This document shows positions 3,441-58,867 of a stretch of DNA of 64,000 nucleotides, one piece after another. How positions within the stretch are numbered: position 1 is the stretch's first letter; each line of letters opens with the position of its first letter. Origin of the DNA: a virus. Lineage: Duplodnaviria; Caudoviricetes. The notes under the pieces are model-generated. The model was not told where the DNA came from and ran no database searches. It saw nothing but the letters and a program-made list of their open reading frames with translations. The position numbers and the translations under genes are program-made. The stretch lies in IMG/VR virus record IMGVR_UViG_3300021400_003144. The stretch is one strand, 5' to 3'.

Positions 3441-3445
3441 GTAGG

Positions 3446-4116: not shown

Positions 4117-4136
4117 AATATAGGAGGTAGTTTTAA

Positions 4137-4718
4137 ATGGGTATTTGTTTAACTAAAGGGCAGAAGGTAAGTCTTACAAAGGATAATCCAGGTCTTAAGA
4201 ATGTTATAGTAGGGCTTGGCTGGGATGCAAATGTGTTTGATACAGGTGATGCTTTTGACCTTGATGCATCAGTATTTCTTCTTGGTGAAGATGGTAAGGT
4301 TACAAGTACAGATGATTTTGTATTTTATGGAAATAAGGTACATAAGTCTGGTTCAGTAGAGCATCTTGGAGATAACAGAACTGGTGATGGTGAAGGTGAT
4401 GATGAACAGATTAAGGTAGACCTTTCTAAGGTTCCTGAGAACATTAAGAAGATTGTTTTCACTGTTACAATCTATGATTATGAGACTAGAAAGCAGAACT
4501 TCGGACAGGTTGAAAATGCTTATGTAAGAATCATTGATGAAAATACAGGAACAGAGCTTGTAAGATATGACCTTTGTGAAGATTTTAGCATTGAGTCAGC
4601 TGTAGTATTTGGTGAGTTGTATAGAAACAATGGTGAGTGGAAGTTTAATGCTATTGGTTCTGGATATCAGGGTGGACTTGCAGCTCTTTGTAACAACTAC
4701 AACGTAGATGTTGATTAA
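4137..4718 (+). CDS. terD: TerD/TerE family stress protein
   Basis: Same TerD motifs ([27 protein letters not shown]); paralogue of 3535-4116. Confidence 0.95.
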
Positions 4719-4791
4719 ATGAAAAGTATAAAAATGGATTGTTCACAAATAAATGTGAGCAGTCCATTTAAAATTAAATAGGAGATTCAAT

Positions 4792-5421: not shown

Positions 5422-5434
5422 GCATACAGATATA

Positions 5435-8083
5435 ATGGAGAATATGGATAAGATGGAGAAGTTGGATAAAGACATTCTGATTAGAGGACTGACAGATGCT
5501 GAAGTAGAAGAGAGCAAGTCAAAGTTCGGTGTGAATGAGTTAGCTAAGAAAGAGACAGAGTCATTATGGCAGATGTTCTTAGGAGCATTTGATGATATCT
5601 GGATTAAAGTACTTTGTGGTGCTTTGATTTTAAAGATTGTTCTTGCAGTAGTAGGTATGTACATTCCTGAAATGTCAGGTGGAAGTGATGCTATTGAGAT
5701 TATCAGTATTGTAATGGCGATTGCATTGGCAACTGGATTTAGTACATTATCTGAGTATAGAAATACTTCAAGGAGTGAGGCTCTGCAGGAAGAGTACAAT
5801 AAGACATATGCCAAGGTAATGAGAAACGGAAAGCTTGTAAATATTCTTACAAGCGAAATTGTTAAGGGTGATGTAATTCTTGTACAGGCAGGTGATAAGG
5901 TTCCAGTTGATGGTTTAATGTTTGATGGAACTGTAAAGGTATCACAGGCAGCTCTTAATGGTGAGTCAAGAGATGAAACTAAGACAGCTACTGATAGTAT
6001 GGAAGAGGCAGAGTCAACAGATTATTCATCTAAGAGTAAAATCTTTATGGGTTCTGTAGTAACATCTGGTGAGGGTTACATGGTAGCTACAGTAATTGGA
6101 GATGCATCAGAACTTGGTAAGATTAACAAAGCTCTTACAGATAATACTGAAGAGGAAAGAAAAGATACAAGTAGTTTAAAGCTTGAGGTTGTAGCAGCTG
6201 GCATTGGTAAACTTGGTGTATCTGCGGCTGTAATAGCTGGTGTACTTCATGTAGGTCTTACACTAATGAGGGCTAATGAAGAGGCTTCACTAGTAACAAT
6301 TCTACTTCTTGTAGCTGAAGCTGTAATGCTTATGGCAAGTATAGTAATCATGGCTGTACCTGAGGGTCTTCCAATGATGAATAGCTTGGTTCAGAGTATG
6401 AATACAGAGAGCATGTATAAGAAAAATATTCTTGTAAGTCATAAGGCAGCATTCTCTGATTCAGCTTATATGAACGTATTGTTTAGTGATAAGACAGGAA
6501 CAATTACTCAGGGTAATCTTTCACTTGTTGAATTTATTACAGGTGATGGTGAAATTGTACCAAGTATTACAGATAGAGAGTTTATTGAAGCCATTACATT
6601 AAATAACCTGGCTAAGATTTCATCAGAGGGTAAGGCTATTGGTTCAAATAACATGGACAGAGCTCTTCTGACATATGCAATTAATAATGGTTATAATGAC
6701 AGCAAGAATGACCCTTCTAAGGTTGAAGAGATTAGTGGTTTTGACTCAGAAAAGAAGTGTGCTACAGTTAAACTTAAGAACGGAGTCATCTATTGGAAGG
6801 GTGCTACAGAGAATATCATTGATAAGGTTACTCATTATGTAGTATCTGACAGTGAGATAAAAGAGTTAACTGCTGAAGATAAGGAAAAGATTAAAGAAGT
6901 AATGCTTGCTCAGGCAAAGAGAACAATGAAACTTCTTAGTGTAGCTAAGATTGATGGTGATAAGACAATTTTATTTGCAATTCTTTGTTTGAGAGATAAC
7001 GTAAGAACAGATGCTGTTGAAACAGTACAGATTCTTAATAAGGCTGGTATTCAGGTAGTAATGGTAACTGGTGATGCAGAGGAAACAGCAGTAGCTATTG
7101 CAAAGGAAGCTGGTATTTATAATGAAGAGCATGGTGATGTAGTTCTTACTCATGAAAAGCTTGAGGGTATGACAGATGATGAACTTAAGGAAGTTCTTCC
7201 TAAGCTTAGAGTAGTAAGTAGAGCTAAGCCTCTTGATAAGAGGAGACTTGTAACATTGTCACAGCAGACAGATAATGTTTGTGGTATGACAGGTGATGGT
7301 GTAAATGATGCTCCTGCATTAAAGCAAGCAGATATTGGTTTTGCAATGGGTGATGGAACAGCAGTAGCTCAGGAAGCAGGAGATGTAGTTATTCTGAATA
7401 ACAGTCTAACATCTATTAAGGACTGTGTTCTTAATAGTAGAACAATGGCTAAGAGTGTTGGAAAGTTCCTTATTTTCCAGTTGACAGTTAATATCAGTAC
7501 ATTGCTGATTAACATAATTGCTCCAATTCTTGGTTGGACAGAGCCATTCAGTATTGTTCAGATTCTTTGGATTAATCTTATTATGGATACGCTCGCAGCT
7601 ATGGCGTTTGGTGGTGAGCCTATTCTTGATAGATATATGAATGAGAAGCCTGTAAAGAGAACTGATAATATTCTTACAAAGTATATTAAATCAGCTATTG
7701 GATTAAGTGCTGTATTCATTACATTTGGTAGTGTTCTAATTCTTGAGAATGTAGCAGGTGTTACAAGTTATGTAACTCCAGAAGGATGTTCTGACCCAGA
7801 GTTATATAAGAAAACATTTATGTTTGCATTCTTCATTTATAGTATAATCTTCAATAGTTTAAATACAAGGTCTGAAACGATTAATGTATTTGAACATATT
7901 AATGAGAATAAGAGATTCATCTCAGTTATGAGTAGCATCTTTATTCTTCAGACAATTATCATTGAAATAGGTGGTAAGGTATTTAGCACAACCACACTAG
8001 ATATTAAAGCTTTACTTGTTTCAATGGCATTAGCATTCTGCATCATTCCTGTGGATATGGTACGAAAGCTAATTACAAAGTAA
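5435..8083 (+). CDS. P-type ATPase, probably Ca2+-transporting
   Basis: DKTGT phosphorylation site, AVPEGLP, MVTGD, TGDGVNDAPALK, QILWINLIMDT; actuator motif reads NGES instead of TGES. Confidence 0.92.
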   Translation: MENMDKMEKLDKDILIRGLTDAEVEESKSKFGVNELAKKETESLWQMFLGAFDDIWIKVLCGALILKIVLAVVGMYIPEMSGGSDAIEIISIVMAIALATGFSTLSEYRNTSRSEALQEEYNKTYAKVMRNGKLVNILTSEIVKGDVILVQAGDKVPVDGLMFDGTVKVSQAALNGESRDETKTATDSMEEAESTDYSSKSKIFMGSVVTSGEGYMVATVIGDASELGKINKALTDNTEEERKDTSSLKLEVVAAGIGKLGVSAAVIAGVLHVGLTLMRANEEASLVTILLLVAEAVMLMASIVIMAVPEGLPMMNSLVQSMNTESMYKKNILVSHKAAFSDSAYMNVLFSDKTGTITQGNLSLVEFITGDGEIVPSITDREFIEAITLNNLAKISSEGKAIGSNNMDRALLTYAINNGYNDSKNDPSKVEEISGFDSEKKCATVKLKNGVIYWKGATENIIDKVTHYVVSDSEIKELTAEDKEKIKEVMLAQAKRTMKLLSVAKIDGDKTILFAILCLRDNVRTDAVETVQILNKAGIQVVMVTGDAEETAVAIAKEAGIYNEEHGDVVLTHEKLEGMTDDELKEVLPKLRVVSRAKPLDKRRLVTLSQQTDNVCGMTGDGVNDAPALKQADIGFAMGDGTAVAQEAGDVVILNNSLTSIKDCVLNSRTMAKSVGKFLIFQLTVNISTLLINIIAPILGWTEPFSIVQILWINLIMDTLAAMAFGGEPILDRYMNEKPVKRTDNILTKYIKSAIGLSAVFITFGSVLILENVAGVTSYVTPEGCSDPELYKKTFMFAFFIYSIIFNSLNTRSETINVFEHINENKRFISVMSSIFILQTIIIEIGGKVFSTTTLDIKALLVSMALAFCIIPVDMVRKLITK

Positions 8084-10037: not shown

Positions 10038-10075
10038 AAGGGCTATTATATAATTAAATATAATAGTTCTTTTTT
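10038..10075 (+). terminator. Rho-independent terminator
   Basis: AAGGGCTATTATAT / ATATAATAGTTCTT plus T run. Confidence 0.7.
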
Positions 10076-10097
10076 ATTTGAATAAAAGTTTTAAATT

Positions 10098-10130
10098 AGT
10101 ATTGAAATTTTAGATAAATTGTGATAAAAT
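10098..10130 (+). promoter_or_regulatory. SigA-type promoter (recurrent motif)
   Basis: AGTA-TTGAAA, 17 nt ending GTGA, TAAAAT. Confidence 0.75.
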
Positions 10131-10147
10131 AATAGAAGTTGAAATAA

Positions 10148-10714
10148 TTGAGATACAAGTTATTAAAGGTGAAGGTAATGACTATACAAGAGAGAATAGA
10201 CATTGATAGAACTTTTGGTACATTAGGTGGTAATGTAAGTAACATTGTAATAACAGATTTACAGGGAACTAAGTTTTGTGAGTCTTTAAGAATGCTAGAA
10301 AGCTATAATGATTTTATATTATATCAACGGTATCAAGGTACAGATAGGTTTCAGTTTGTAGATAGTAGTCGTTATAGTTTTCCTAGAAATATAAGTGTGG
10401 TTGAATCTGTTAAAATATATATTGATAACAATGAATACAATAAATTTATGAGTATACCATATACAGATGATGTGGAGATTTCACAGTTTGGATATGGAAT
10501 TATGATAGAGATTAAATATTATGCTTTAAATAAGCATACTAGACATTATATAAATCAATATATTATAAAAAGATTCATTAGTTTTAAGAAATGGTGTCAT
10601 TCAGATTTAGCTGGGGCAGTATATAAAGTATTAGATACCAGTCTAAATGTGAATGATTACATCATGGATACTTCACATGATAGATACATGGAATATATGG
10701 AATTATTTAAGTGA
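10148..10714 (+). CDS. Hypothetical protein
   Basis: 188 aa ORF; true start possibly the ATG at 10178. Confidence 0.6.
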   Translation: MRYKLLKVKVMTIQERIDIDRTFGTLGGNVSNIVITDLQGTKFCESLRMLESYNDFILYQRYQGTDRFQFVDSSRYSFPRNISVVESVKIYIDNNEYNKFMSIPYTDDVEISQFGYGIMIEIKYYALNKHTRHYINQYIIKRFISFKKWCHSDLAGAVYKVLDTSLNVNDYIMDTSHDRYMEYMELFK

Positions 10715-10731
10715 TGATGAAGGAGTAAAAA

Positions 10732-11001
10732 ATGACAATTGAACTATTTTTAATTTGGATTTTTGTTGAGGTAGCTTGTATTACTGGCATTAGTTATTGC
10801 ATATTTGAGTTTGTACTAATGAGACTTCCATTTAAGATAGTTAGCATAACTAAGTATGATAAGGATACTTATATAATAAAAGTTAGTAGACTCTGGTTGA
10901 AATATGAATATATAACCGGTAGAGAAATGGAAGTTAATGATTTCGATAGAAACATTAATTTTAAAATAGTTATACAGGAAGAGAAAAAGAATGAGCAGTA
11001 A
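10732..11001 (+). CDS. Small membrane protein
   Basis: N-terminal hydrophobic helix, AAGGAG RBS. Confidence 0.6.
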   Translation: MTIELFLIWIFVEVACITGISYCIFEFVLMRLPFKIVSITKYDKDTYIIKVSRLWLKYEYITGREMEVNDFDRNINFKIVIQEEKKNEQ

Positions 11002-11039
11002 AGGGTGAATTTTGAGATTTAAAACGGAGAAGAAAATAA

Positions 11040-11573
11040 ATGATTTGGTTGACCAGTGATTTACATTATAATCACAATAGAGATTTTATATACAAGCCTA
11101 GAGGTTTTAATAGTGTTGGTGAAATGAATAAAGCTATATTAAAGACTTGGGATGGGCAGGTTAAAGATAATGATACGGTTTATGTACTTGGTGATTTAGC
11201 TCTGAATTTAAAGGAAGAAGAACTTAAGAAGTTTGTAGATGGTCTTAAGGGTGAAATTCATATTATTCTGGGTAATCATGATACTATAAACAGGGAGGCA
11301 GTATATAAAACTTGTAAGAACGTAGTAGAAGTAGTCTATGCTAAAGTAATTAAGTATGACAAGATAGTATTTTATTTGAGTCATTATCCAACTTTAGTAA
11401 GTAATTTAAGAGACCAGCCTAGGTATTGTTTATGCGGACATACACATACTAAGAATCCTTTAGAGCATTGGGATTTAGGGAATATAATTCATGTAGAATT
11501 AGATTCTTGGAACAATGCATTGGTTAGTATTGATGATGTAATTAAATTAATTGAAGAAAATTCAGATTTGTAA
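11040..11573 (+). CDS. Calcineurin-like metallophosphoesterase (phage-type)
   Basis: SDLH, VLGD, LGNHD, SHYP, GHTH motifs. Confidence 0.9.
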   Translation: MIWLTSDLHYNHNRDFIYKPRGFNSVGEMNKAILKTWDGQVKDNDTVYVLGDLALNLKEEELKKFVDGLKGEIHIILGNHDTINREAVYKTCKNVVEVVYAKVIKYDKIVFYLSHYPTLVSNLRDQPRYCLCGHTHTKNPLEHWDLGNIIHVELDSWNNALVSIDDVIKLIEENSDL

Positions 11574-29091: not shown

Positions 29092-29167
29092 GCTGAGAAG
29101 AGAAAGATGGACAGAACTATAGTTTAAGTGTATTAAAGAGTTTAATTTATTGAGTTCATGTAATAAA

Positions 29168-30094
29168 GTGGACCCTTGTAATAGGGATTGAATTTATTTC
29201 TGTGAGTAACCACATCCTCATAAAATTGAAGAACCCTGCAATAGGGATTGAATAATTTCTGTTACTCTCATATTTAGCATCCAATTAAGTGAACCCTTTG
29301 ATAGGGATTAAATCTTATTTTACACTAGTTCAACCACATGATGATTAAAGAACCCTTCTAATAGGGATTGAGCTTGGTACATTTTGTTATCTTCCTTTAA
29401 ATAAATGAGATGAACCCTTGCAATAGGGATTGAGTAGTCTTATTTAGAAGAGTAGAATGCTGATATTTTGAGTGAACCCTTATAATAGGGATTGAGTTAA
29501 TTGAAAATTAACATTAATATTCATATTCATGATAGTGAACCCTTTAATAGGGATTGATTACCTATACACAATGTCGTAGGCTTGAATGAAGTGAACCCTT
29601 TAATAGGGATTGCATAGGCGAAAAATGTAAAATCATCAAAGTTCTTATTGAACCCTTTAATAGGGATTGCATGGTCAATATTTGCGTTGTTAATTACTAC
29701 TAATAAAGTGAACCATTCTAATGGGGATTGAATAGTACATAATAATGTTTAAGGTTATGTCATATAACAGGAAACCCTTATAATAGGGATTGAATCAGAA
29801 GAGGTGGAAGGCCAACTTTGGACATTTCAAGTGAACCCTTATAATAGGGATTGCATCTATTTTCGTAGTTCCAAATTGCCTTTAATTTAAGAGAACCCTT
29901 GCAGTAGGGATTGCATTAATAGAGACAAAGCGCTCTGTCTATTTTTCTAAAGAACCCTTTAATAGGGATTGTATCATTTCTATCATGTTTTCGAGGTCTG
30001 AACGTTTTAGAGAACCCTTTAATAGGGATTGCATATGCTGATGATTTTTAAAATCACCAAGAGGAAAGTAAGAACCCTTGTAATAGGGATTGTA
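29168..30094 (+). CRISPR. CRISPR array 1: 16 degenerate repeats, 15 unique spacers
   Basis: GAACCCT-(5-6 nt)-AGGGATTG recurring about every 60 bp (29168, 29228, 29289 ... 30070); 3' end resembles the ATTGAAA(C/G) handle. Confidence 0.92.
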
Positions 30095-30128
30095 TTATTA
30101 AATGAAGCAGGGAGAGGAAAGCTTATAT

Positions 30129-30915: not shown

Positions 30916-30943
30916 AGTGAATAAACATTGGGGGGATATAAAA

Positions 30944-32221
30944 ATGGGCAAGGGTAAGAAAATTTTAGCAGTAGAAATACCTATTGGGTTAATGGCAGTT
31001 AGTATGATGCTTAATGCTTGTAATAATCAAGTTGTAGCTAATGAAAGTAAGAGTGAGACAATGAATATTGCGAAAGTGACAGATGTAAATGAAGCTTTGT
31101 TTAATCTTAGTAAAAATGTGATACAAAGCGAATTGTCAGATACATCAGATAATATAATGGTGTCACCTGTATCTATAGAAAGGTGCTTTGCTTTAGCTAT
31201 AGAGGGAGCAAATGGAGAGACAAGAGAACAGTTAGAAAAAGCAATATATTCTAACTTACCTTTTGAAGATACAGCATATAAGATAGGAACTATTTGTGAT
31301 AAGCTAAGTTACTATGATGTAGATGCATATGATGATAAGAATAATCATATAGATGAGACTAGAAAGGCATTTAAAGTTGCTAATTCTATATGGATAAACT
31401 CAGATGCAGATGATTTTAAGATTAAGACTGAATATAAGGATAGAATAGGCATCAATTATAAAGCTGAAGAGTTTGAGATACCTTTTTCAGATGGACCTAA
31501 TCCTATAAATAATTGGGTAAATACAAATACAGATGGAATGATACCCAGTATATTAAATGATTTAACACCTGATGATATGACTGTACTTGTAAATGCAACT
31601 ATGTTTAAGGGTGAATGGGTTGATAAGTTTGAGAATGATTCACCTGAGAAAAACTTTACAGACTCAGATGGAAGTATAAAGCAAGTTGACTTTATGAGAA
31701 GCTATAAGGATGATAGATATGTACAGATAAAGGATAGAGATGCATTTGTAAAGCAATATAATAACAAGTTTATGTATATTGGAATACTACCTAAAGAAAA
31801 TGAAAGCACTAATGAACTTCTTAAGGAACTAGAATATAAAGATATAATCAAAGGACTTGGAAATAATACCAATTATGATTTAGTTTTAGACTTTCCTAAA
31901 TATAAGTATGAAAGCTCAATGAGTTTAGTAAAAGTATTTAAGCAACTTGGTGTAGATTTAGCATTTGGAAATGAAGCTGATTTCTCTAATATGAGTGATA
32001 AGCCTTTACATATTTCAGATGTTCTACATAAGACCTATGTAGAACTTGATGAAAATGGAACTGAAGCAGCTGCTGTGACAGCTATAACAATGGATTTGAA
32101 TAGTGCAGCTATTGAGCAAACACCTGTTAAAGAGCTAGTATTTAATAGACCATTTATTTATATGATAGTATCCACTAATGATAAGTTGCCGGTCTTTGTA
32201 GGAGTAGTAAATAAATTATAA
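30944..32221 (+). CDS. Serpin (serine protease inhibitor), lipoprotein
   Basis: NIMVSPVSI, GANGET, INNWV..NTDGMI, NATMFKGEW, hinge ENGTEAAAVT, FNRPFIY; lipobox LNAC. Confidence 0.95.
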   Translation: MGKGKKILAVEIPIGLMAVSMMLNACNNQVVANESKSETMNIAKVTDVNEALFNLSKNVIQSELSDTSDNIMVSPVSIERCFALAIEGANGETREQLEKAIYSNLPFEDTAYKIGTICDKLSYYDVDAYDDKNNHIDETRKAFKVANSIWINSDADDFKIKTEYKDRIGINYKAEEFEIPFSDGPNPINNWVNTNTDGMIPSILNDLTPDDMTVLVNATMFKGEWVDKFENDSPEKNFTDSDGSIKQVDFMRSYKDDRYVQIKDRDAFVKQYNNKFMYIGILPKENESTNELLKELEYKDIIKGLGNNTNYDLVLDFPKYKYESSMSLVKVFKQLGVDLAFGNEADFSNMSDKPLHISDVLHKTYVELDENGTEAAAVTAITMDLNSAAIEQTPVKELVFNRPFIYMIVSTNDKLPVFVGVVNKL

Positions 32222-34869: not shown

Positions 34870-34884
34870 CATAAATAAGGTTGA

Positions 34885-35224
34885 TAGAACCCTTTTATAG
34901 GGATTAACTGATATTAGCTAAAGGTAAGCATTTGAATTTGCTCCTTTTAGCATTGGAACCCTGTTATAGGGATTGAAACATACAGCACTATACATTGCAG
35001 AAATTTTCACAGATAGAACCCTGTTATAGGGATTAAATGCTTCAGATAGATTTGTAGAAGTCTAGAATTGTATAGATAGAACCCTTGTAATAGGGATTGA
35101 GTGTTTATAGACAAGGTAGTACCTTTAGGAATATGTTTAAACCCTGTTATAGGGATTGACTTATGATTGTACAATCAACGTGTAAGTATTAAGTATTTAA
35201 ACTGAACCCTGTTATAGGGATTAG
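34885..35224 (+). CRISPR. CRISPR array 2: 6 repeats, 5 spacers
   Basis: Mostly AACCCTGTTATAGGGATT; the second repeat ends in canonical ATTGAAAC (to 34979). Confidence 0.88.
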
Positions 35225-35225
35225 A

Positions 35226-35264
35226 TACACCTTTAAATCAAATGGTTTAAAGGTGTAATTTTTT
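35226..35264 (+). terminator. Rho-independent terminator closing array 2
   Basis: TACACCTTTAAA / TTTAAAGGTGTA plus T6. Confidence 0.85.
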
Positions 35265-35277: not shown

Positions 35278-35306
35278 TTGACAAAATTATAAAAAAGTGA
35301 TATGAT
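35278..35306 (+). promoter_or_regulatory. Promoter of the cas operon
   Basis: TTGACA, 17 nt ending GTGA, TATGAT. Confidence 0.8.
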
Positions 35307-35349: not shown

Positions 35350-37227
35350 ATGGTAGACGAAAAATGTAAAGAGCTTTATATAGCAGGTCTACTCCATGAT
35401 GTAGGTAAGTATATACATAAGACTAATGGCAATAAGGCTTCTCATGAGATATTATCTCAGTTGTTTATTTTAGATAATCCTGAGATTTGTATTGGGGCTG
35501 ATGTTGAGAAAATAGCTAACATTGTAGCCAATCATCATGACAGAGGAAAGTATGATAAAAGCTTTGTAGGAAATTTAAAGATAACTCCTGATAAAGTGGT
35601 GTCTGCTGAACTTTGTAAGAAAGCTTATGATAACTATAAGTTGGACTGCTATAAGAGTGAGATAGACATTATTAAAAAGGCTGATAGCTTATCAGCTTCA
35701 TCAGACAGAGCATCTGAGACTGGAGAGTCAGGAAATGGAACAAGTGCTCCATATGCTCCACTAATATCTCCTATTGGAAAAGTATTCAATAAGAGATTAG
35801 CAGTAAGACATGGTAATTCTTACTGTGTTTACAACTTTAGTGGGGATACTGATACTAAAGAAGTTATCATGGAGCTTGATAAGAATTGTGATGAACATAT
35901 AGAGAGTTCCTTTGAGTCTTTCATGAATGACATAAAGGCTATAAAGAGTCTGAATGACCTTGATGATATTCTGAAAAAGCATTGGTCAACTGTCAATGCC
36001 AATACATGGAGACCTAAGGGAGAATCTTTAGGAAACACAACTACTTCCTTGTATGACCATAGTAAAACTACAGCGGCTTTGGCTGTAGGGGCATATCTAA
36101 ATAAATGTGCTGGTGTGGCTGTGGATGATATGTTTGTTTACAGAGTAGTATACAATGGAAATAACAGAAGTCTTGAGGATATTGTTGATAATCTTTTGAA
36201 TGAGATTGGACTATCTCAGTTACATGTAATAAGTTCTACTGATGATGAGGTTTATGCAATTATACCTTATATAAAGTCATTAGAATTTGTAGAAGGTCTG
36301 AGTAAAGAGAACATAATATCTTTTAAGGATTTTGGAGAGACAATAGACTACTTTGTAGCTAAGCATTGGAAATTTAAGGGTTGCAGAGATTCTTTTAGAG
36401 ATAGACTTGGAGAGTGTCAGTATGGTATAACTAAAGTCTTAGGTAAAGTAGATGCAGGCATTGGAGCTGATACTTATATAGCAGATAGACTTGATAGTAA
36501 GTTTATAGGTGGCTATGTAATAGATGGTTATGACTATATACTTGAACATGTACTAACTGAGAATGACTCCATTAGTAAGCTGAGTACTACCTTTAGAATA
36601 TTTGAAGCATTTAATAGAGAAGTAACTAAACTTCTTGACAACAAGGGTAAAATGGTACTCAAGTCTGAACTTGATAAGACTATTTATTCAGCTGATAACA
36701 TTGAGGAAGTGCATAGGATTGAAGTAGAGATACAGTCAATATTTGAGAAGTACTTCGGAGATGCTACAGGGTTGTACTTTACATACTCTAAGTATGACAG
36801 ATATAGCAATACAGTAGAAATGTTGGACAGAGAATTTAATACTAGAGGTGCTAGTCTGAATATTGAGAAGAAGCTTCAGAATGGAGGTCTGTACACTACA
36901 GTTCTTATAGATACTAAGAGATATAAGATAAATAGTTTAAAGATATATAATGAATATGTTGGGTATCTGAGTAAGTGTGATAAATCCTTCTTGTATAAAG
37001 CAAAGCAGATGTATGATGAGCTGTTTAAGTATAACATTGATAAAGACCCTATACATCTTGTAGCTAAGTCAAGACTGTACTATATGAAGTCAAAGGCAGA
37101 TGGAAATAAGGTAAATGTACTTAATGAGATATATAAGTGTGCATTTGATTCTGCAAAAGGTCAGATTAGTGATAATGCATACATAATATATGAAGCATTA
37201 AAAAATGTGTTAACCAATGTGAAGTAA
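35350..37227 (+). CDS. cas10: Divergent, shortened Cas10/Csm1: HD nuclease intact, cyclase GGDD absent
   Basis: AGLLHDVGK, ANHH, KADSLSASSDR, SLYDHSKTTAALA are Csm1 hallmarks; no GGDD anywhere in 625 aa. Confidence 0.85.
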   Translation: MVDEKCKELYIAGLLHDVGKYIHKTNGNKASHEILSQLFILDNPEICIGADVEKIANIVANHHDRGKYDKSFVGNLKITPDKVVSAELCKKAYDNYKLDCYKSEIDIIKKADSLSASSDRASETGESGNGTSAPYAPLISPIGKVFNKRLAVRHGNSYCVYNFSGDTDTKEVIMELDKNCDEHIESSFESFMNDIKAIKSLNDLDDILKKHWSTVNANTWRPKGESLGNTTTSLYDHSKTTAALAVGAYLNKCAGVAVDDMFVYRVVYNGNNRSLEDIVDNLLNEIGLSQLHVISSTDDEVYAIIPYIKSLEFVEGLSKENIISFKDFGETIDYFVAKHWKFKGCRDSFRDRLGECQYGITKVLGKVDAGIGADTYIADRLDSKFIGGYVIDGYDYILEHVLTENDSISKLSTTFRIFEAFNREVTKLLDNKGKMVLKSELDKTIYSADNIEEVHRIEVEIQSIFEKYFGDATGLYFTYSKYDRYSNTVEMLDREFNTRGASLNIEKKLQNGGLYTTVLIDTKRYKINSLKIYNEYVGYLSKCDKSFLYKAKQMYDELFKYNIDKDPIHLVAKSRLYYMKSKADGNKVNVLNEIYKCAFDSAKGQISDNAYIIYEALKNVLTNVK

Positions 37228-37236
37228 GGAGTATAC

Positions 37237-37719
37237 ATGGACGATAATTATTTAAAGGAAATCAAGTCTGGATATACAGACAATGGTGTAGCTAAGCTGA
37301 GTCTGATTGATGGATATCCTCAGAAGTTAGCTAAGGAGTTTAATGAAGCAACTCCAATGTTGTCAACAAAGCAATCAAGAAGTATCTTTGATACTGTGAA
37401 TGGACTTGAGGTTAAGCTTCGTAGAAAGTCAGTATCATTTGATGAAGTCAAGATTGAACTTGGACTACTTAAGTCTAGAATAAATGATAAGGTTAATAAG
37501 GGAAGTATCCCTAAGGTATTCTTTGAGTTCTTTGAGGAAAATATTAAAGCCATTAAGAATGAAAAGGATTTACAGGTGTTTAAGATTCATCTTGAGTCAA
37601 TTTGTAACTATCTCAAGGATGATAAGCAGACTGGAAATAACGGAAGCTACAATAAGGGTACAGGCTATAATGGAAATTATAGACCTAGAACAAATGGATA
37701 TAATAACAATAGAAGATGA
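37237..37719 (+). CDS. csm2: Csm2 (Cas11) small subunit
   Basis: LSTKQSRSIFD and F..HLESICNY resemble Csm2 (T.Q.R.FF, F..F.EA...Y); lies between cas10 and csm3. Confidence 0.8.
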   Translation: MDDNYLKEIKSGYTDNGVAKLSLIDGYPQKLAKEFNEATPMLSTKQSRSIFDTVNGLEVKLRRKSVSFDEVKIELGLLKSRINDKVNKGSIPKVFFEFFEENIKAIKNEKDLQVFKIHLESICNYLKDDKQTGNNGSYNKGTGYNGNYRPRTNGYNNNRR

Positions 37720-37736
37720 AAGTGAGGATATAAATT

Positions 37737-38375
37737 ATGATTAAGGAGCAGATTAAGATTACAGGTGTACTTACAACAGAGTCAGGTATACATATTGGTG
37801 GTACTAAGTCAGACTTAGGAATTGGTTCTATGGACAATCCGGTTGTTAGAGATGCTCTTACAAATAGACCTTATATTCCTGGTTCATCCATTAAGGGAAA
37901 GATGAGAAGTATGTTTGAGCTTAGTGGTTTTGCTAAGGGCAAGACATTACCTTGTGGCTGTGGTGATAAGGATTGTATCGTATGCAAGCTCTTTGGTGCT
38001 CATAGAAATACCAAGTCTGAAGCAGGTCAGACAAGAGTAATGTTCAGAGATGCTTATTTATCACCAGAGTTTGAGAATCTTGATAACACTATTGAAGTTA
38101 AGACTGAGACAGCTATTGATAGAAGGACTGGTACAGCTCAGAATGGTTCTCTGAGACAGAGTGAGAGAGTTGCAGCAGGTGTCAATTTCAACTATGAGAT
38201 TAGCATTCTTGTATGCGATGGAGACAATGCTGATGAGCTTAGGGCTATGGTTGAGAATGGTCTTAGAATGATTGAGGCTACAGGTCTTGGTGGTAAGGTA
38301 TCAGCTGGATATGGTAAGGTTAACTTCAATATTGGTGCTGATTCTTATAAGGTAGAAACTAGGAAGTTTAATTAA
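37737..38375 (+). CDS. csm3: Csm3 (Cas7) backbone RNase
   Basis: GIHIGG, IGSMDNPV (catalytic Asp kept), PYIPGSSIKGKMRS, Cys cluster, ETAIDR, GLGGKVSAGYGKV. Confidence 0.95.
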   Translation: MIKEQIKITGVLTTESGIHIGGTKSDLGIGSMDNPVVRDALTNRPYIPGSSIKGKMRSMFELSGFAKGKTLPCGCGDKDCIVCKLFGAHRNTKSEAGQTRVMFRDAYLSPEFENLDNTIEVKTETAIDRRTGTAQNGSLRQSERVAAGVNFNYEISILVCDGDNADELRAMVENGLRMIEATGLGGKVSAGYGKVNFNIGADSYKVETRKFN

Positions 38376-38387
38376 AGAGGTGTACAG

Positions 38388-39089
38388 GTGTTATATAAAA
38401 TAGAACTTCAACAGAATACGGCTACAATAGGTAATGTTGTAGCCAATACATTATTTGGGGCTTTTCTAACAGCTTATTCAACTATATATACAGTTGATAA
38501 GGACATGATAGATGATATTGTATTATCTGATTTATTTTATAATAACATCTTACCTAAGGGTGTTATTAATAATAAAACAGTGTTCTCAAAGCCTTTTGAA
38601 CATACTCAGATAGAAATGTCAAGAGCTCTTATAGCAAGAGATAATGAATCAACTAATGTTGTAAATAATACTGTTGGTAATATTGATAAGAAATGTTCAT
38701 TCTTTATTAGTACTAAGTTACTTGATAAGAATGACATTGAGGAAATAGTCAAGCTTATGTGTGAGTTTGGTATAGGCAAGTGGAGAAATGTTGGTAAAGG
38801 TCAATTTGAATTTAAGAGCATAGAGGAATATGTACCAAAGACAGATGTAAAGAGATTTGTATGTTTAAGTAGTTTTATTCCGGACTGTGATATAAACGAT
38901 TATGACATCAGTTCTTTAGGTTATACAATTAGAGATGCCTATGCTACCAATGGTATTAAACAGAAGCAGACTATAATGCTTCTGACAGGAACAAGTTTCA
39001 GAACATTCAGAGAAGTTGTTGGAAAGCATGTATATGATGAGAATAGCAATACTTATATACATGGTAAATCAATAGTGATTGGAGTTTAA
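38388..39089 (+). CDS. csm4: Short Csm4 (Cas5) subunit
   Basis: NTLFGAF, LSDLF, glycine loop GIGKWRNVGKGQF. Confidence 0.8.
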   Translation: MLYKIELQQNTATIGNVVANTLFGAFLTAYSTIYTVDKDMIDDIVLSDLFYNNILPKGVINNKTVFSKPFEHTQIEMSRALIARDNESTNVVNNTVGNIDKKCSFFISTKLLDKNDIEEIVKLMCEFGIGKWRNVGKGQFEFKSIEEYVPKTDVKRFVCLSSFIPDCDINDYDISSLGYTIRDAYATNGIKQKQTIMLLTGTSFRTFREVVGKHVYDENSNTYIHGKSIVIGV

Positions 39090-39090
39090 G

Positions 39091-39717
39091 ATGGTTTATA
39101 GATTAGAAAAACTTATTTCAAGTGGAGAAAAAGCAACTAAGGATTTAGGTATTCTTAGCAATATGATATCTAATGCAGAGAATGTGCATGGAATCCTTGG
39201 AGAGCTTTTTAACTTAGAGAATGAGCAGAACTGGAGAGCTAATCATCATATTTTATACAGAAGAGAGACAAATAAGACTTGTGAATTTATTGTTAGATCT
39301 GATGTAGAAATTGATATGAATAAGGCTAAAGAGCTTGGTTTCAGTGTAAAGACAGAAAAAGAAGTTCCAATGACTGGTGTTGTAAAAATCAGACTTGCAG
39401 CGGCTACCTTTAGAACAGAGAAAGGCTCATCAAGTCGTAATAGAAAAGCTATTAAGCTTCAGGATGATAGAATTAACTGGATTAAGTATAAGTTATCCAG
39501 TAAGGGTGAATGTGAAGTTTATGATGTAAATGAAGTAGGCAAGGTAATGAATTTCATGTCTCATAAGGATACAGCTAATGGGCAGGTAATGCTTGAGGGT
39601 TATGATTATGAGGTTAGTCTTAAGGTCAAGGATTCAGAAGGGTTTAAAAAGCTTGTAGAGAATGGTGTAGGACCCAATAAAAACTATGGGTTTGGAATGA
39701 TAGTCTGTAGTGAATAA
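39091..39717 (+). CDS. cas6: Cas6 endoribonuclease of the Cas6e (Cse3/CasE)-like type
   Basis: H...ILYR, IRLAA, NWI..K, L.V.D...F..LVENGVGPNKNYGFGMI; ATG 39091 after GGAG (ORF track start 39079). Confidence 0.8.
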   Translation: MVYRLEKLISSGEKATKDLGILSNMISNAENVHGILGELFNLENEQNWRANHHILYRRETNKTCEFIVRSDVEIDMNKAKELGFSVKTEKEVPMTGVVKIRLAAATFRTEKGSSSRNRKAIKLQDDRINWIKYKLSSKGECEVYDVNEVGKVMNFMSHKDTANGQVMLEGYDYEVSLKVKDSEGFKKLVENGVGPNKNYGFGMIVCSE

Positions 39718-39736: not shown

Positions 39737-39765
39737 TTAACCTAGACTTATGTAGTCTAGGTTAA
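39737..39765 (+). terminator. Perfect 12-bp hairpin abutting array 3
   Basis: TTAACCTAGACT-TATGT-AGTCTAGGTTAA; no U tract; overlaps the first repeat. Confidence 0.5.
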
Positions 39766-40147
39766 ACCCTTATAATGGGGATTGTATATTGAAAGCATAT
39801 AAGTTTATGAATGCTCTTCCAATTAGAACCCTTATACAGGGATTAAATGTTGATGAACTCTTCCATTTCGTTGAAGGGTTTGAGAGAACCCTTGTGACAT
39901 GGATTGATACATTTGATTCTCCTTTATTCTCTATGTAGAGAACCCTTGTGACAGGGATTGATACATTTGGTAGTGACTTTAATTCTTTAAGCAATGAATA
40001 TCTGAACCCTTGTAATAGGGATTGAATTACTTTGATTTTAGCAATAAACTCAATACTTAGATCTAGAACCCTTTAATAGGGATTGCATTAAAAGCTTTTC
40101 TGCTAGTTACATTACAATATAGGGAGAACCCTTTTATAGGGATTGTA
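39762..40147 (+). CRISPR. CRISPR array 3: 7 repeats, 6 spacers
   Basis: Repeats at 39762, 39824, 39884, 39938, 40002, 40064, 40124. Confidence 0.88.
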
Positions 40148-40168
40148 TTAAGCATAGGAGGTGTATAT

Positions 40169-40876
40169 TTGAATAGAATTTTAAAAATAATAGTCATAAC
40201 TATCTTTAGTTTTATTGGAATATCAGTAATGAGCATAATTCTTTTAATAGGTGGAATACAGCTATTTGTACTCGGATACAACGGAAGTATTCCTGATGTT
40301 GAAGAGAGACCAAAGATTATTGCTCATGAACTAGGGAAGAAATACGGAGATAAGTTCGAAGTACTTAGTTGTGAGCAAGTAAATCTTGGTAGTTACAAGG
40401 TTGCTAAGCACGCAAATATTGGTGAGGCTAAGTGTTTGTCAGATGGAATTAAGTTTAATTATCAAGTAGATTTGAGATGTAGAAAAGATTTATGTGATAA
40501 TTACATTGGATTATTGAATGAACCAGTAATAATGGAGGATATAAAAGAGTTATTAAATGAGAATAACTTAGAAGAATATTTTTATAACTTAGAATTAGAT
40601 ATGAATTATTCATATGAAGCAAAGACATTAGCTGAGTATAAAGAAGATGAAAACATAGTAGTAAAAGTTGATACAGAGGTATATGATTCTGAGGATGCAG
40701 AAAACTATTATAGACTTTTTCATTTATTAAAGGACAATGGGTATGTATTTGATGCTAAGTTAAGAGACAGTGATAATAAAACATATCTAAGTGGTAGACC
40801 TTCAGATACAGATAAAGAAGCATATATAACTGAAGAAAGATTCAGGAATAAAATGGAAGATATAGGAATATACTAA
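40169..40876 (+). CDS. Membrane-anchored protein lying between arrays 3 and 4
   Basis: AGGAGG RBS, TTG start, N-terminal TM, L..KYG..FEV and DNY motifs. Confidence 0.7.
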   Translation: MNRILKIIVITIFSFIGISVMSIILLIGGIQLFVLGYNGSIPDVEERPKIIAHELGKKYGDKFEVLSCEQVNLGSYKVAKHANIGEAKCLSDGIKFNYQVDLRCRKDLCDNYIGLLNEPVIMEDIKELLNENNLEEYFYNLELDMNYSYEAKTLAEYKEDENIVVKVDTEVYDSEDAENYYRLFHLLKDNGYVFDAKLRDSDNKTYLSGRPSDTDKEAYITEERFRNKMEDIGIY

Positions 40877-40900
40877 TGGTGATTTAGTATGTTCTGTGAT

Positions 40901-41049
40901 AAGAACCCTTTTATAGGGATTGATACTTGTAAATTTTATTCAACATACACATTTTAGAAATATTCGTGCTGAACCCTTTTATAGGGATTGTATAATCATA
41001 ACTTCAGAGTTTTCAAGGGCACAGTTTGAACCCTTTTATAGGGATTGGT
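40901..41049 (+). CRISPR. CRISPR mini-array 4: 3 repeats, 2 spacers
   Basis: Three identical cores GAACCCTTTTATAGGGATTG. Confidence 0.85.
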
Positions 41050-41056
41050 GAGCTAT

Positions 41057-41111
41057 AAATAAGTTGGTATAGTACTAGGAAATTAATCTTAGGCTATACC
41101 AACTTATTTTT
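41057..41111 (+). terminator. Rho-independent terminator
   Basis: AAATAAGTTGGTATAG / CTATACCAACTTATTT. Confidence 0.8.
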
Positions 41112-41129
41112 GTGTAAAAATTTTAAATT

Positions 41130-41193: not shown

Positions 41194-43431
41194 ATGAGAG
41201 TACTTTTATTACTTAGAGGAGCTCCTGGGTGTGGAAAATCAACATTTATTGATTATAATGGTCTTAGACCTTATGCATTATCTGCTGATGAAATTAGGTT
41301 ACTGTGTCAATCTCCTCAGCAAACACCTGATGGTTCTGTTCAGATTGGGGTAAATCATGAGGAAAAGACCTGGCGTATCTTATTTGATTTGCTTGAAGCT
41401 CGTATGGAGAGTGGAGAGTTTACTATTATAGATGCTACGAACTCTAAAACATCTGAAATGAACAGATATAAAGAGATGGCAGATACATACAGATATAGAA
41501 TGTACTGTGTAGATTTTACAGACTTGCCTATTGAAGAGTGTAAAAGACGTAATGCAGGCAGAGAGCCTCTTAAGAGAGTTCCTGATGAAGCAATAGACAA
41601 GATGTATGCTAGGTTTAAGACTCAGAAGATACCTAGTGGTATCAAGGTAATTAAGCCTAGTGAACTTAGTACAATCTGGATGAAGCCTATTGACTTCTCT
41701 AAGTATAATAAGATAGTTCATATTGGAGATATACATGGATGCTATACAGCTTTAAAGGAATACTTTGATAAGAATGATATAGCTGATGAAAATACCTTTT
41801 ATATCTTTACTGGAGATTATATAGACAGAGGTATTGAGAATGTGGAAGTTATGAATTTCCTCTTTGAAGCAGCTAAGAGAAAGAATGTATTTCTTCTTGA
41901 GGGAAATCATGACAGATCTATTCAGATTTATGGTCATGGTGGTGCTTCAAGAAACAAAGAGTTCGAGTTTGGAACTAGGAAGCAGTTCGAGGATGCTCAT
42001 ATAGATACCAAGGAGCTTAGAAATCTTTATAGAAGATTTGGACAGTGTGCTTATTATACATATGATGATAAGACAGTGCTGGTATGCCATGGTGGAGTAG
42101 CTACTGTTCCTGATAACATAACTAAGTTAGCTACATGTCAGTTAATTAATGGTGTAGGCAAGTTTAGTGATGCAGATACTGTTGAAGATACTTGGATGAA
42201 CACTACTGAGAATAATATGTATCAGATACATGGACATAGAAATACTAAAATGAGTCCTATACAGTCAAGAGATAGAGTGTTTAATCTTGATGGTGCTGTA
42301 GAACATGGTGGTGAGCTTAGAATAGTAGAGCTTACTCATGATGGGTTTAAGTGTATAGGTATTAAGAATACAGTCTTTGCAGAAGATGCAAGCTTAGAGA
42401 ATATGTCTGAGTCAAGTGAGGTTGGAGCAAATGATACTGTAGCTGACTTGATTCTTAAGCTGAGAGCTGATAAAAAGAACATTGAAGAAAAGAACTTTGG
42501 ACATATAAGTTCCTTTAACTTTACAAGAGATGCCTTTATAAACAAAGATAATTGGAATAGCAGAACTGTAAAAGCTAGAGGCTTATATATTGATGTAGAT
42601 AAGCAGAAGATTGCAGCTAGGTCATTTGATAAGTTCTTTAATGTAAATGAAATGCCATTTACTAAGTTTGATATGCTTAAGAACAAGCTTAAATTCCCAG
42701 TGAAAGCCTATGTAAAAGAAAATGGTTTCCTAGGTATTGTAGCATATGATGAATATGGTGACTATGAGGATAACCTGATTGTAACAAGTAAGTCAAGCAT
42801 AACTGGAGATTTTTCAGGCTGGTTAAGAGATATGCTGAACAGAAAGACAGAGTATGATACTCGTAAGAAGATGGCTGAGTTCTGTAAGGCTAATGATTGT
42901 AGCTTGGTATTTGAATGTGTAGACATGGGTAATGACCCTCATATCATTGAATATCCTGAGTCTGAGCTGTATCTGCTTGCTTGTGTAAATAATGAGATTG
43001 AGTTCAAGCAGATGAGCTATAATAAGCTTGAGAAGTTAGGAAGAGAGCTTGGACTTAAGGTTAAGACATTGGCTTATACTCTTAATAATTGGAGTGAGTT
43101 CTATGATTGGTATACAGAGGTCAATGCTGATGACTATAAGTTTAATGATAGAATCATTGAGGGTTTTGTAATTGAAGATGCTTCAGGATTTATGACAAAG
43201 ATTAAGCTTAGCTACTATCAGTTCTGGAAACACATGAGAGCTGTAGCTAGAGAAACATTACGCTATGGTTATATAAGAAAAACTGGTGCATTGACAGATG
43301 AAACATCTAATATGTTCTATGGATTCTGTAGAAATCTATATAATGAGGCAGGAAGTCCTGTTATGAGAGACCTTATACCTAGAGATATAGTCTATCTCAG
43401 AAAGAGATTCTATGATAGTTTAAAGAAGTAA
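41194..43431 (+). CDS. Polynucleotide kinase-phosphatase / RNA ligase fusion (RNA repair)
   Basis: GAPGCGKST and IDATN kinase; GDIHG, GDYIDRG, GNHD phosphoesterase; KFFN, KENG, FE, EGFV, K.K ligase motifs. Confidence 0.9.
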   Translation: MRVLLLLRGAPGCGKSTFIDYNGLRPYALSADEIRLLCQSPQQTPDGSVQIGVNHEEKTWRILFDLLEARMESGEFTIIDATNSKTSEMNRYKEMADTYRYRMYCVDFTDLPIEECKRRNAGREPLKRVPDEAIDKMYARFKTQKIPSGIKVIKPSELSTIWMKPIDFSKYNKIVHIGDIHGCYTALKEYFDKNDIADENTFYIFTGDYIDRGIENVEVMNFLFEAAKRKNVFLLEGNHDRSIQIYGHGGASRNKEFEFGTRKQFEDAHIDTKELRNLYRRFGQCAYYTYDDKTVLVCHGGVATVPDNITKLATCQLINGVGKFSDADTVEDTWMNTTENNMYQIHGHRNTKMSPIQSRDRVFNLDGAVEHGGELRIVELTHDGFKCIGIKNTVFAEDASLENMSESSEVGANDTVADLILKLRADKKNIEEKNFGHISSFNFTRDAFINKDNWNSRTVKARGLYIDVDKQKIAARSFDKFFNVNEMPFTKFDMLKNKLKFPVKAYVKENGFLGIVAYDEYGDYEDNLIVTSKSSITGDFSGWLRDMLNRKTEYDTRKKMAEFCKANDCSLVFECVDMGNDPHIIEYPESELYLLACVNNEIEFKQMSYNKLEKLGRELGLKVKTLAYTLNNWSEFYDWYTEVNADDYKFNDRIIEGFVIEDASGFMTKIKLSYYQFWKHMRAVARETLRYGYIRKTGALTDETSNMFYGFCRNLYNEAGSPVMRDLIPRDIVYLRKRFYDSLKK

Positions 43432-50755: not shown

Positions 50756-50837
50756 AGTACCCCTTATAATGGGGATTGAATATATTTTTTATACAGCTCT
50801 TCATCTGTGAAAATAGAACCCTCGTTGGGGATTGAAT
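50756..50837 (+). CRISPR. CRISPR mini-array 5: 2 repeats, 1 spacer
   Basis: ACCCCTTATAATGGGGATTGAAT and GAACCCTCGTTGGGGATTGAAT. Confidence 0.8.
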
Positions 50838-56854: not shown

Positions 56855-58867
56855 ATGGAGGCAACTTTCACAGCAACAGATATAGTATGGATGCTAGTGT
56901 TGACAGAGATACTTACAGCACTTATCATGTCATTTAAAAATAAAGCTATTAAGGGAACGAAAGAAACTAAAGAGTCAAAAGAGACAAAAGAGACTAAAGA
57001 TAAAAATGAAGAGCTTGTTTTAAAGTTGAAAGAAGCATCTGATACTGTTAAGAAGCAGAAGTTAGAGATAAATAGTTTAAAAGCAGGAAATGCAAGACTC
57101 AAGAGTTTAGTAGAGGGACTTGATAACGATAAGGGTAGTCTTAAGAGAGAAAATGAAGAGCTTAAGACAGAGAATAATAGGATTATAAAAGATAATAATA
57201 GGCTTGTAAAAGATAGTGAGATACTTATAAAAGAGAATAAGAGACTTAAGAGTTCAGTAAATAACTTAGATAAAGATTTTAATTCTCTTATACATAGAAA
57301 TACAGTGCTAAAATCAAATAATGATAAGCTTATAAAAGAGAATGATAATATTAAGGATTCATCAGGTAACTCAAGTAGATTAAATAAAGATACAAATAGA
57401 CTTAAGGCTGAAAATGAGAAACTTATAAAAGAGAATGAAAGACTTAAAAGTTCCTTAGCTAGCTTAGATAGATATGCTAATAATCTTAGAAGTTATGATA
57501 TAGGACTGCGAATGAGTAATGAGAAGCTTCAAAAATCATTAGATATCAATGTAGATGAACTTAAGGCTGAGAATACAAAGCTAAAAGCAAAGAATGAAAC
57601 TCTTTTAAAAGAGAATGAGAGTTTTATAAAAGAGAATAAACAGCTTAGAGATGCTAATAATCTTAGAAGCAAGAACATAGGGCTTAAGACTGAGAATGAA
57701 GGACCTAAGAGTTCATTAAATAAATCAGATATTGATATTACTTATCTTATGATTGCAAATGGAGAGCTAAAGGAATGTAATAAAAAACTTGTGAAAGAGA
57801 TAGAAGCTGTAAAGTCTGAATATAAAGACAAATTAAGTGAGGTGATAGCTGAAAGAGATAAGGCAAGTAACTATTTTGATTTATATAAGTTTAATTCAAG
57901 CAATGAGATAGACAATCTTACAAACGAAAATGCAGGGCTAAAGAGTGAAAATGAAAGGCTTCAGAATTTATCAAGTGGCTTAAATAAAGATGATAATTTC
58001 AAGTTTGAAAACATGGAGCTGAGAGCAGAGAATGAGAGGCTTCAAAGTGAGATAGAATCTATACAGGCTGAATGTAGAGAAAAGCTAAGTGCAGTAATAG
58101 GTGCAAGGAATAAGGAAAGTAACTATTCTGATATAGTTAAGTATAACCTAAGTGAAGAGATAGAAGATCTTAAAAATGAAAAAGATAAGCTTATAAGTGA
58201 AATAGAAACTGTAAAGTCTGAATATAAAGACAAATTAAGTAAGGTAATGGCTGAAAGAGATGAGGTAAGGAATTACCTTGATACAGTTAATAATGAGAAG
58301 TTTAAATTAAGTAAAGAAGTAGAAAGACTTAAAGATGGAAGAGATAAGACAAGTTATTACTTTGGTACACTTGATAAAGATAAGGTTAGACTATATAAAA
58401 CGATAGCAAGACTTAATGATGAGAAGGGTAGGCTAAGAACTAATTTAGAAAGTCTTAAAGTTGAAATGGATGGACTTAAAGCTGAAAATAATAAGCTGAC
58501 TAATTACTTTGGCCTAATAAGCTTCAATTCAAGCAGAGAGATAAATAGACTTAAAGCTGAAAAAGATGAGCTTATAAGTGAGTTAAAAGGTCTTAAAGAA
58601 GATGAGGATACTTTAAGATCTAATTTAGAATATACTAAAATTGAAAGAAATAAGGCAAGAGATTATATTAATATACTTAATAGGGAAAATGTTAGCTTAA
58701 GTAGGGAGCTAGAGAGTATTAAAAATGCTAAACAAAATGGAGTAAGGAATTATATTAATATAGTTAATTTTAATTTGAATGCAGAGATAGATAGTCTTAG
58801 AACTGAAAATGATAATCTTAGAGTTGAAAATGATAGTCTAGTAGAGGCAATAGAAAATCTATATTAG
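56855..58867 (+). CDS. Membrane-anchored long coiled-coil protein
   Basis: N-terminal TM, LK.EN..L heptads, internal duplication GTAAAGTCTGAATATAAAGACAAATTAAGT (57809 and 58211). Confidence 0.75.
   Translation: MEATFTATDIVWMLVLTEILTALIMSFKNKAIKGTKETKESKETKETKDKNEELVLKLKEASDTVKKQKLEINSLKAGNARLKSLVEGLDNDKGSLKRENEELKTENNRIIKDNNRLVKDSEILIKENKRLKSSVNNLDKDFNSLIHRNTVLKSNNDKLIKENDNIKDSSGNSSRLNKDTNRLKAENEKLIKENERLKSSLASLDRYANNLRSYDIGLRMSNEKLQKSLDINVDELKAENTKLKAKNETLLKENESFIKENKQLRDANNLRSKNIGLKTENEGPKSSLNKSDIDITYLMIANGELKECNKKLVKEIEAVKSEYKDKLSEVIAERDKASNYFDLYKFNSSNEIDNLTNENAGLKSENERLQNLSSGLNKDDNFKFENMELRAENERLQSEIESIQAECREKLSAVIGARNKESNYSDIVKYNLSEEIEDLKNEKDKLISEIETVKSEYKDKLSKVMAERDEVRNYLDTVNNEKFKLSKEVERLKDGRDKTSYYFGTLDKDKVRLYKTIARLNDEKGRLRTNLESLKVEMDGLKAENNKLTNYFGLISFNSSREINRLKAEKDELISELKGLKEDEDTLRSNLEYTKIERNKARDYINILNRENVSLSRELESIKNAKQNGVRNYINIVNFNLNAEIDSLRTENDNLRVENDSLVEAIENLY

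Follow-up and report, generated by a model that had tools for sequence, protein, structure and literature searches.

A five-gene cas operon with Cas6e

The window analysed here is a stretch of 64,000 nt from the virus record IMGVR_UViG_3300021400_003144 (Duplodnaviria; Caudoviricetes). Between positions 35350 and 39717, five tightly packed open reading frames (ORFs) follow each other on the plus strand with gaps of 1–17 nt, in the order cas10-csm2-csm3-csm4-cas6e. Judging from the sequence, we think it fairly probable that this operon encodes a type III CRISPR effector that is carried by a mobile element, does not signal and obtains its guides in the style of type I-E systems.

The proteins were assigned by profiles from PADLOC, NCBIfam and Pfam. 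The first gene (35350–37227, 625 aa) is cas10/csm1-like; its profile matches are to an HD domain and to Csm1, of which the N-terminal portion is covered. It is followed by csm2 (37237–37719), which encodes the Cas11 small subunit (160 aa; PF03750 43.8 bits, above the cutoff), and by csm3, the Cas7 gene (37737–38375, 212 aa; TIGR02582 182 bits, cutoff 90). The fourth product (38388–39089, 233 aa) is a Csm4-like Cas5 RAMP protein that scores 47 bits with TIGR01903, below the cutoff of 55, and matches the PADLOC Csm4 model at 1.6e-15. The last gene (39091–39717, 208 aa) encodes a Cas6e-like CRISPR RNA endoribonuclease that lies above the PF08798 cutoff with 56 bits. The gene caller places its start at ATG 39091; an alternative TTG at 39079 would yield 212 aa.

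The best sigma-70-type promoter of the region is found at 35278–35306 on the plus strand, just in front of cas10. It consists of TTGACA, a spacing of 17 nt and a TG-extended TATGAT, with 11 of 12 matches. An intrinsic terminator-like hairpin on the same strand (35226–35257, 14 pairs and a T-run) precedes it and closes the upstream unit. A preliminary description, made from the letters of the window, had proposed a five-gene operon with its own promoter, a short Csm4 and a Cas6e rather than the usual type III Cas6. All of this is borne out by the packing of the ORFs, the promoter, the length of Csm4 (233 aa compared to ~300 aa for a typical Csm4) and the PF08798 score.

The same description had listed Csm5, Csm6/CARF effectors, Cas1 and Cas2 as missing from the window, and our searches likewise found none. 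When 28 ORFs in the interval from 26 to 63 kb were compared with PADLOC, NCBIfam or Pfam profiles, nothing matched Csm5, CARF, SAVED, Cas1 or Cas2, and queries with Cas1e, Cas2e and Csm5 from other loci had no tblastn hit in the window. A fifth RAMP gene (Csm5) is also absent from all 7 related loci. Scans of the operon and its neighbours revealed no Cas8e, Cse2, Cas7e, Cas5e or Cas3.

Cas10 has the fold of Csm1 and lacks the cyclase motif

The N-terminal part of Cas10 matches TIGR02578 with an E-value of 3.9e-19, below the curated cutoff. An AlphaFold (AF2) model based on 28 homologues shows a confident full Csm1 fold (pLDDT 88, pTM 0.89). It matches III-A Csm1 over the full length (Foldseek E 2.7e-16, TMq 0.64), which identifies the protein as a type III large subunit with two Palm domains. 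In a VIA-align comparison, III-A Csm1 reached a Z score of 20.4 with 527 aligned residues, and the Cas10 proteins of III-B and III-D reached ~14.

In agreement with the initial reading, the 625 aa protein contains the HD motifs, the SLYDH.KTTAA string and, in the Palm2 region, IGGYVIDG, SISKLSTTFR and VLKSELDK. The residues H16, D17, H62, H63 and D112 of the HD set are invariant in 28 sequences and also in a set of 11. The motifs SLYDH..TTAA and DSISK are invariant or nearly so across the relatives. The other part of that reading, that GGDD is missing and ELDK stands in its place, is supported in two ways. In a hidden Markov model (HMM) alignment to Lactococcus lactis Csm1, E-L-D-K falls on G-G-D-D, within an aligned domain that is weak by itself, and in the AF2 model residues 440–443 form the turn between the Palm2 strands 436–439 and 443–448, which is the usual site of GGDD. 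Across the relatives this site reads SELD, SSFD, LSLD, QTLS or SISE, so the GGDD position is not conserved. The family is also without the Cys-rich zinc-finger insert that sister proteins carry before Palm2.

It might be argued that Cas10 still signals, either from a non-canonical active site or with another messenger and an unrecognised effector. Many members still have one Asp at this site (ELDK, SFDK, SLDS), Palm2 retains its fold and resembles nucleotide cyclases at Z ~11, and many neighbouring genes belong to no known family. However, the residues at the GGDD position are not conserved across the clade, the 7 related loci have no additional gene in common next to the operon, and the profile scans gave no match to CARF or SAVED. 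Continued signalling therefore appears very improbable to us.

A Cas10 without GGDD or GGDE (by pattern search) was also seen in another locus. This protein of 785 aa is encoded by L020 (8010–13386), which lies on a 374-kb contig of a Clostridia metagenome-assembled genome (MAG), includes csm4 and csm5, and otherwise looks like a canonical III-A locus.

Csm3, Csm4 and Cas6e

Csm3 is an unambiguous III-A equivalog according to TIGR02582. Its Asp33 aligns with the catalytic D33 of Streptococcus thermophilus Csm3, as had been expected from the catalytic Asp noted at the outset, and both Asp33 and a cluster of four Cys are invariant in 8 loci. The scores of the two RAMP proteins also distinguish the system from IV-C, in which a Csf-type Cas7 and Cas5 accompany a Cas10-like HD large subunit: Cas7 scores 182 bits with the Csm3 profile versus 42 bits with type IV Cas7, and Cas5 scores 55 bits with Csm4 versus 16 bits with IV-C Cas5.

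With TIGR01907 (cutoff 45.2), Cas6e of the window remains below the cutoff at 34.7 and Cas6e of the related locus L001 lies above it at 47.8. A His near the N-terminus (His33) is invariant across the loci. The same is true for the C-terminal glycine-rich loop G-x-G-x-x-K-x-Y-G-x-G, which aligns with that of E. coli CasE. The window protein also gives a weak match to the PADLOC model of IV-A3 Cas6 (E 7e-6).

Relatives of the operon and their adaptation genes

A search of 5.8 billion proteins yielded 38 Cas10 clusters with lengths of 606–679 aa and identities of 33–51%, several of them on contigs of 230–430 kb. Most of the relatives lie on one-strand contigs of 40–430 kb. When 1.84 billion representative proteins were searched exhaustively with a profile, only 13 had E-values below 1e-30, and ordinary Cas10 proteins came next at 1e-17. 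The family forms a group with 100% support in a tree of 154 Cas10 proteins. It is nested within a GGDD-less group of 52 rows (606–732 aa), which is split at 100% support from 102 mostly GGDD-positive Cas10, so the separation of a GGDD-less clade from canonical Cas10 is clear.

The order cas10-csm2-csm3-csm4-cas6e recurs in six further loci, in which Cas10 is 31–51% identical to that of the window. Csm3 identity among the relatives is 61–72%, and 45% in the distant locus L009. These figures bear on the possibility that a type III-A system has decayed here and that the operon is what is left of it, without function, as the short Csm4, the degenerate repeats and the absence of Csm5, Csm6, Cas1 and Cas2 from the window might indicate. 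However, five ORFs that are intact and syntenic at such distances, invariant catalytic residues and a strong promoter are difficult to reconcile with decay, and we find this explanation hardly credible.

In two lineages, cas2-cas1 is located directly 3' of cas6e. The Cas1e proteins score 275 and 254 bits (cutoff 216), and the Cas2e proteins of relatives also lie above the curated type I-E cutoff. A distant locus of the wider clade has the arrangement cas6e-cas10-csm2-csm3-csm4-cas2e-cas1e. Since type I-E cas2-cas1 genes occur in these two lineages and in the distant locus, their absence from the window is lineage-specific. The lack of Cas1 and Cas2, which the preliminary description had noted, is thus no trait of the system as such: relatives with the same five-gene order carry them. 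The picture of a cyclase-less effector with Cas6e on a mobile-looking element otherwise stands, with an effector derived from type III-A, a retained HD domain and a single Cas7 with its Asp. The Cas10 of the window is recorded on a scaffold of 282,865 bp in an ENA metagenome assembly, the name of which indicates a sheep-rumen study of 2014. Among the 120 best relatives of the L001 Cas1e, there is none on a contig of this length, which is suggestive only.

MAGs of Lachnospiraceae and Oscillospiraceae contain the nearest named relatives of Cas1e, with identities of ~40%, which suggests that the system stems from Clostridia and that these are probably also its hosts. A tblastn search with Cas10 gave no match in GenBank phages or PLSDB plasmids. 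We found no Cas10 relatives in IMG/VR, neither with the single protein nor with the family alignment, and none in the GTDB species genomes with the family alignment. An alignment of the wider clade retrieved ordinary Cas10 loci from GTDB; almost all of them were GGDD-positive and none had cas6e or cas1e.

Repeat arrays and spacers

Between 29167 and 63806, the window contains 45–47 copies of one degenerate repeat. All are on the plus strand, in gene orientation, and they are distributed over ~10 blocks between genes, several of which comprise only 1–3 copies and have no leader. The largest array (29167–30096) consists of 16 degenerate repeats with a period of 56–63 nt and is likely to supply guides in trans. 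A mini-array of six repeats (34883–35227) is located directly 5' of the cas promoter. Seven repeats (39760–40149) begin 43 nt past the cas6e stop, and a mini-array of three (40899–41051) follows; all these arrays are on the plus strand. A 235-aa plus-strand ORF without family match (40169–40876) lies between the latter two within the same putative transcription unit.

A terminator scan detected no plus-strand terminator between the cas6e stop and the array at 39760. With the arrays coming next, the guides encoded 3' of cas6e are probably co-transcribed with the cas genes. The likely terminator of the cas unit is a long plus-strand hairpin at 41059–41113, read from the sequence, whose 14-bp arms (41059–41072 and 41094–41107) are followed by a T-run. 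The consensus terminator scan missed it because its loop is long.

The arrays of the window show a short hairpin followed by ATTGAAT, with AUUGAAUN as the 8-nt tag. When repeats are folded, their hairpin closes immediately ahead of AUU or AUA. Among the copies in the window, stem and tag (ATTG.AT) are kept, and the loop varies in length and sequence. The consensus of the tag in 47 repeats is A47 T47 T47 G40 A31 A32 T38. In all related loci that were examined for repeats, cas6e or cas1 is immediately followed by an array whose period is ~60 nt. It is the single array beside the cas genes within their ~20-kb stretches, and its repeats are short hairpins followed by AT(T/A)GAA(T/C). The repeat of L005, ATCCCCAC-loop-GTGGGGATAGAAC, closely resembles the I-E repeat type of E. 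coli. In L006 (14494–15855), two variants of the repeat, ACTCTT..AGAGATTG and ACCCT..AGGGATTG, occur together in the array that follows cas6e, and both arms of the stem are changed.

The 36 spacers lean towards pyrimidines, with a purine fraction of 0.46 as compared to 0.59 for the coding strand. One spacer from a two-repeat mini-array (50781–50815) is antisense, and in frame, to a variant of the IFTD.ELY.KY segment that is found in both flanking Eco57I-like methyltransferase genes. It matches them at 25 and 27 of 35 nt; its score of 24/30 is the best of the 36 spacers, the others reaching 18–22. This spacer looks as if it were aimed at a third allele, and as far as such a resemblance goes, it would fit guides directed against the transcripts of sibling elements.

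The layout of the repeats allows another explanation, namely a self-directed job, in which Cas6e and the repeats punctuate the long one-strand transcripts of the element and the effector tunes the element's own genes. The scattered leaderless blocks in gene orientation agree with this idea, as does the conservation of the stem and the tag alone, and the arrays flank a gene within the cas transcription unit itself. However, blastn-short of all spacers against the window and the related loci gave matches at chance level only, the residues required for interference (HD, Csm3 Asp) are strongly conserved, and the relatives have ordinary arrays in the ordinary place, beside Cas1e-Cas2e. We consider a self-directed function improbable.

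Proposed mechanism

For the reading we favour, a signalling-free type III effector with type I-E-style guides, the following course of events can be proposed. In every repeat, Cas6e would cut at the hairpin's 3' base and thereby release guides with the 8-nt 5' tag. Csm4 and Cas10 would hold this tag, and Csm3 and Csm2 would line the guide of ~32 nt. The complex would then pair with a complementary transcript, which Csm3 is predicted to cut in 6-nt steps. Binding of the target should turn on the HD nuclease of Cas10, which would attack single-stranded DNA where the locus is being transcribed. Cyclic oligoadenylate would not be produced, and no CARF effector would be recruited. The preliminary description had suggested that a carrier might be spared harm by such a loss of signalling. 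In rumen Clostridia, the likely targets would be transcripts made by phages or by rival elements.

Since Csm5 is absent and cas6e is always part of the operon, Cas6e may stay bound to the 3' hairpin as a cap, similar to the situation in Cascade. A prediction of a Csm3–Cas6e complex gave a score of 0.07, which speaks neither for nor against such a cap. A bolder version, which we regard as speculative and rather unlikely as a whole, would describe the clade as a Cascade-like type III in which Cas6e on the untrimmed 3' hairpin replaces the Csm5 cap and results in complexes of fixed length. [quoted passage not shown] In this particular element, the repeats may in addition have spread through operons as Cas6e processing sites.

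Several observations weigh against the favoured reading. The assignment of the GGDD site depends on a weak HMM domain and on a position in a model, and the search for CARF proteins covers 64 kb of a 283-kb scaffold. The repeats show unusual degeneracy and are dispersed within operons, a layout that would also suit a role in processing or regulation. Finally, no protospacers were found for two array regions in GenBank phages, for two spacers in IMG/VR or for the methyltransferase spacer in JGI metagenomes.

Comparison with known systems

The system shares with the III-A Csm systems of Lactococcus lactis, Streptococcus thermophilus and Staphylococcus epidermidis the order cas10-csm2-csm3-csm4, the Csm1 fold, the Asp of Csm3, a III-A-type Csm2 and the HD motifs. 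It differs from them in having no GGDD, no Csm5 and no Csm6/CARF. Its Cas10 is ~130 aa shorter and has no zinc-finger insert. Cas6e takes the place of Cas6, the repeats form I-E-like hairpins and, where adaptation genes occur, these are Cas1e and Cas2e. With I-E systems it has in common the Cas6e family, a repeat hairpin beside an 8-nt tag and, in the relatives, Cas1e and Cas2e above the equivalog cutoffs. However, none of Cas8e, Cse2, Cas7e, Cas5e and Cas3 is present here, and the effector is of type III. Likewise, IV-C and other plasmid-borne type IV systems are similar in their carriage by mobile elements, in a Cas10-like HD large subunit without cyclase and in a Cas6e-like Cas6, but Cas7 and Cas5 fit the Csm3 and Csm4 models far better, the Asp of Cas7 is kept and Cas11 is of the Csm2 type.

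The closest concept is III-F, which we could compare by description. Both systems are in a reductive state, with an HD-positive, cyclase-dead Cas10, one Cas7, one Cas5 and one Cas11, and without effectors that respond to cyclic oligoadenylate. Most III-F loci are not known to carry cas6 or adaptation genes, whereas cas6e and arrays are constant here, Cas1e-Cas2e are frequent, the Asp of Cas7 is kept, and subunits and gene order are of the III-A type. It is conceivable that the system is in fact III-F that has acquired cas6e and, in some lineages, cas1-cas2. An HD-positive, cyclase-dead profile without effectors has been reported for III-F likewise (PMC11229360), and III-F is counted among the Csm-type complexes, with Tlet_0097-0100 of Thermotoga lettingae as an example (PMC8036902). 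That the wider GGDD-less clade, with its 52 rows, forms a discrete branch of the Cas10 tree would also be in line with this view.

Other data are less compatible with membership in III-F. Most III-F loci are without arrays (PMC12669027), whereas in the present family cas6e and arrays are always found and cas2e-cas1e recur. III-F has been predicted to target DNA only (PMC8036902), but Csm3 of the window retains its catalytic Asp. A search of 58 Thermotogales genomes yielded mostly GGDD-positive Cas10 proteins and no clear III-F locus. A single Cas10 without GGDD (725 aa) was untruncated, and the locus that encodes it resembles canonical III-A in layout, with a fifth gene of the size of csm5. 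Moreover, no named genome contained a relative of the family. Taken together, we judge the III-F explanation to be rather unlikely.

Our preferred reading, a signalling-free type III effector with guides made by Cas6e, has no counterpart in the literature searched: we found no description of a type III effector combined with Cas6e and I-E-like arrays, and none that is phage- or plasmid-borne. The earlier suggestion of an unclassified subtype is supported to the extent that we found no subtype with this gene set in the papers searched, with the reservation that III-F was compared by description. The clade possibly deserves the rank of a subtype. Although it recombines known modules, the system is coherent and conserved, and apparently undescribed.

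A conserved cyclase-dead lineage of this kind would take its place beside III-C, III-F, III-G and III-H, of which III-H is related to III-F (PMC12669027). III-F is regarded as the likely ancestor of type IV (PMC13676074), and the present clade offers a testable candidate for the manner in which mobile elements pared type III systems down in the direction of type IV. It also suggests that giant mobile elements can stably recombine modules from different CRISPR types, whether for the effector, for processing or for adaptation. From a practical point of view, the operon represents a compact natural type III effector of five proteins, which should sense RNA and cut RNA and single-stranded DNA without collateral signalling, with guides made by the well-understood Cas6e hairpin.

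Genomic setting of the operon

The window has a G+C content of ~31% and a strong purine skew, and its plus strand carries nearly all long ORFs. No virion, conjugation or housekeeping genes were seen among the genes of the window. It is apparently part of a giant, mobile-looking, one-strand DNA element. The system also marks a family of rumen and gut elements of 200–430 kb that are missing from the standard virus, plasmid and genome collections. A search of sequencing runs found the stretch in one run only, which is labelled gut metagenome and belongs to the likely source sample; no RNA run with the stretch was listed.

The accessory genes of the window include a YceG/TelA/TerD block, a P-type ATPase, a serpin, two Eco57I-like methyltransferases, a STAND NTPase and a kinase-phosphatase-RNA ligase fusion. 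The YceG-TelA-TerD stress block with the P-type cation ATPase and the serpin (1–8083 and 30917–32221) are accessory cargo that is unusual for a lytic phage. The fusion protein of 745 aa (41194–43431) combines kinase, metallophosphatase and Rnl1-type ligase domains and is encoded just 3' of the cas operon region. In L001 (3772–9610), genes for an RNA 2'-phosphotransferase, a metallophosphatase and an RtcB-like ligase are located just upstream of cas10, so that RNA-repair genes adjoin the cas operon in two lineages. In L010, a divergent member of the family, an IS605 OrfB/TnpB-type gene (10046–11053) is found a few kb away from the cas operon.

Two further features of the window were noted. A promoter-like element of ~62 nt (TTGAAAT/TTGATTT .. 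TATAAT) occurs in four copies, at 8121, 10071, 28303 and 41103, each of which precedes an operon. At 56855–58867, a protein of 670 aa is encoded that consists mostly of coiled-coil-like repeats with a period of 21 nt (7 aa).

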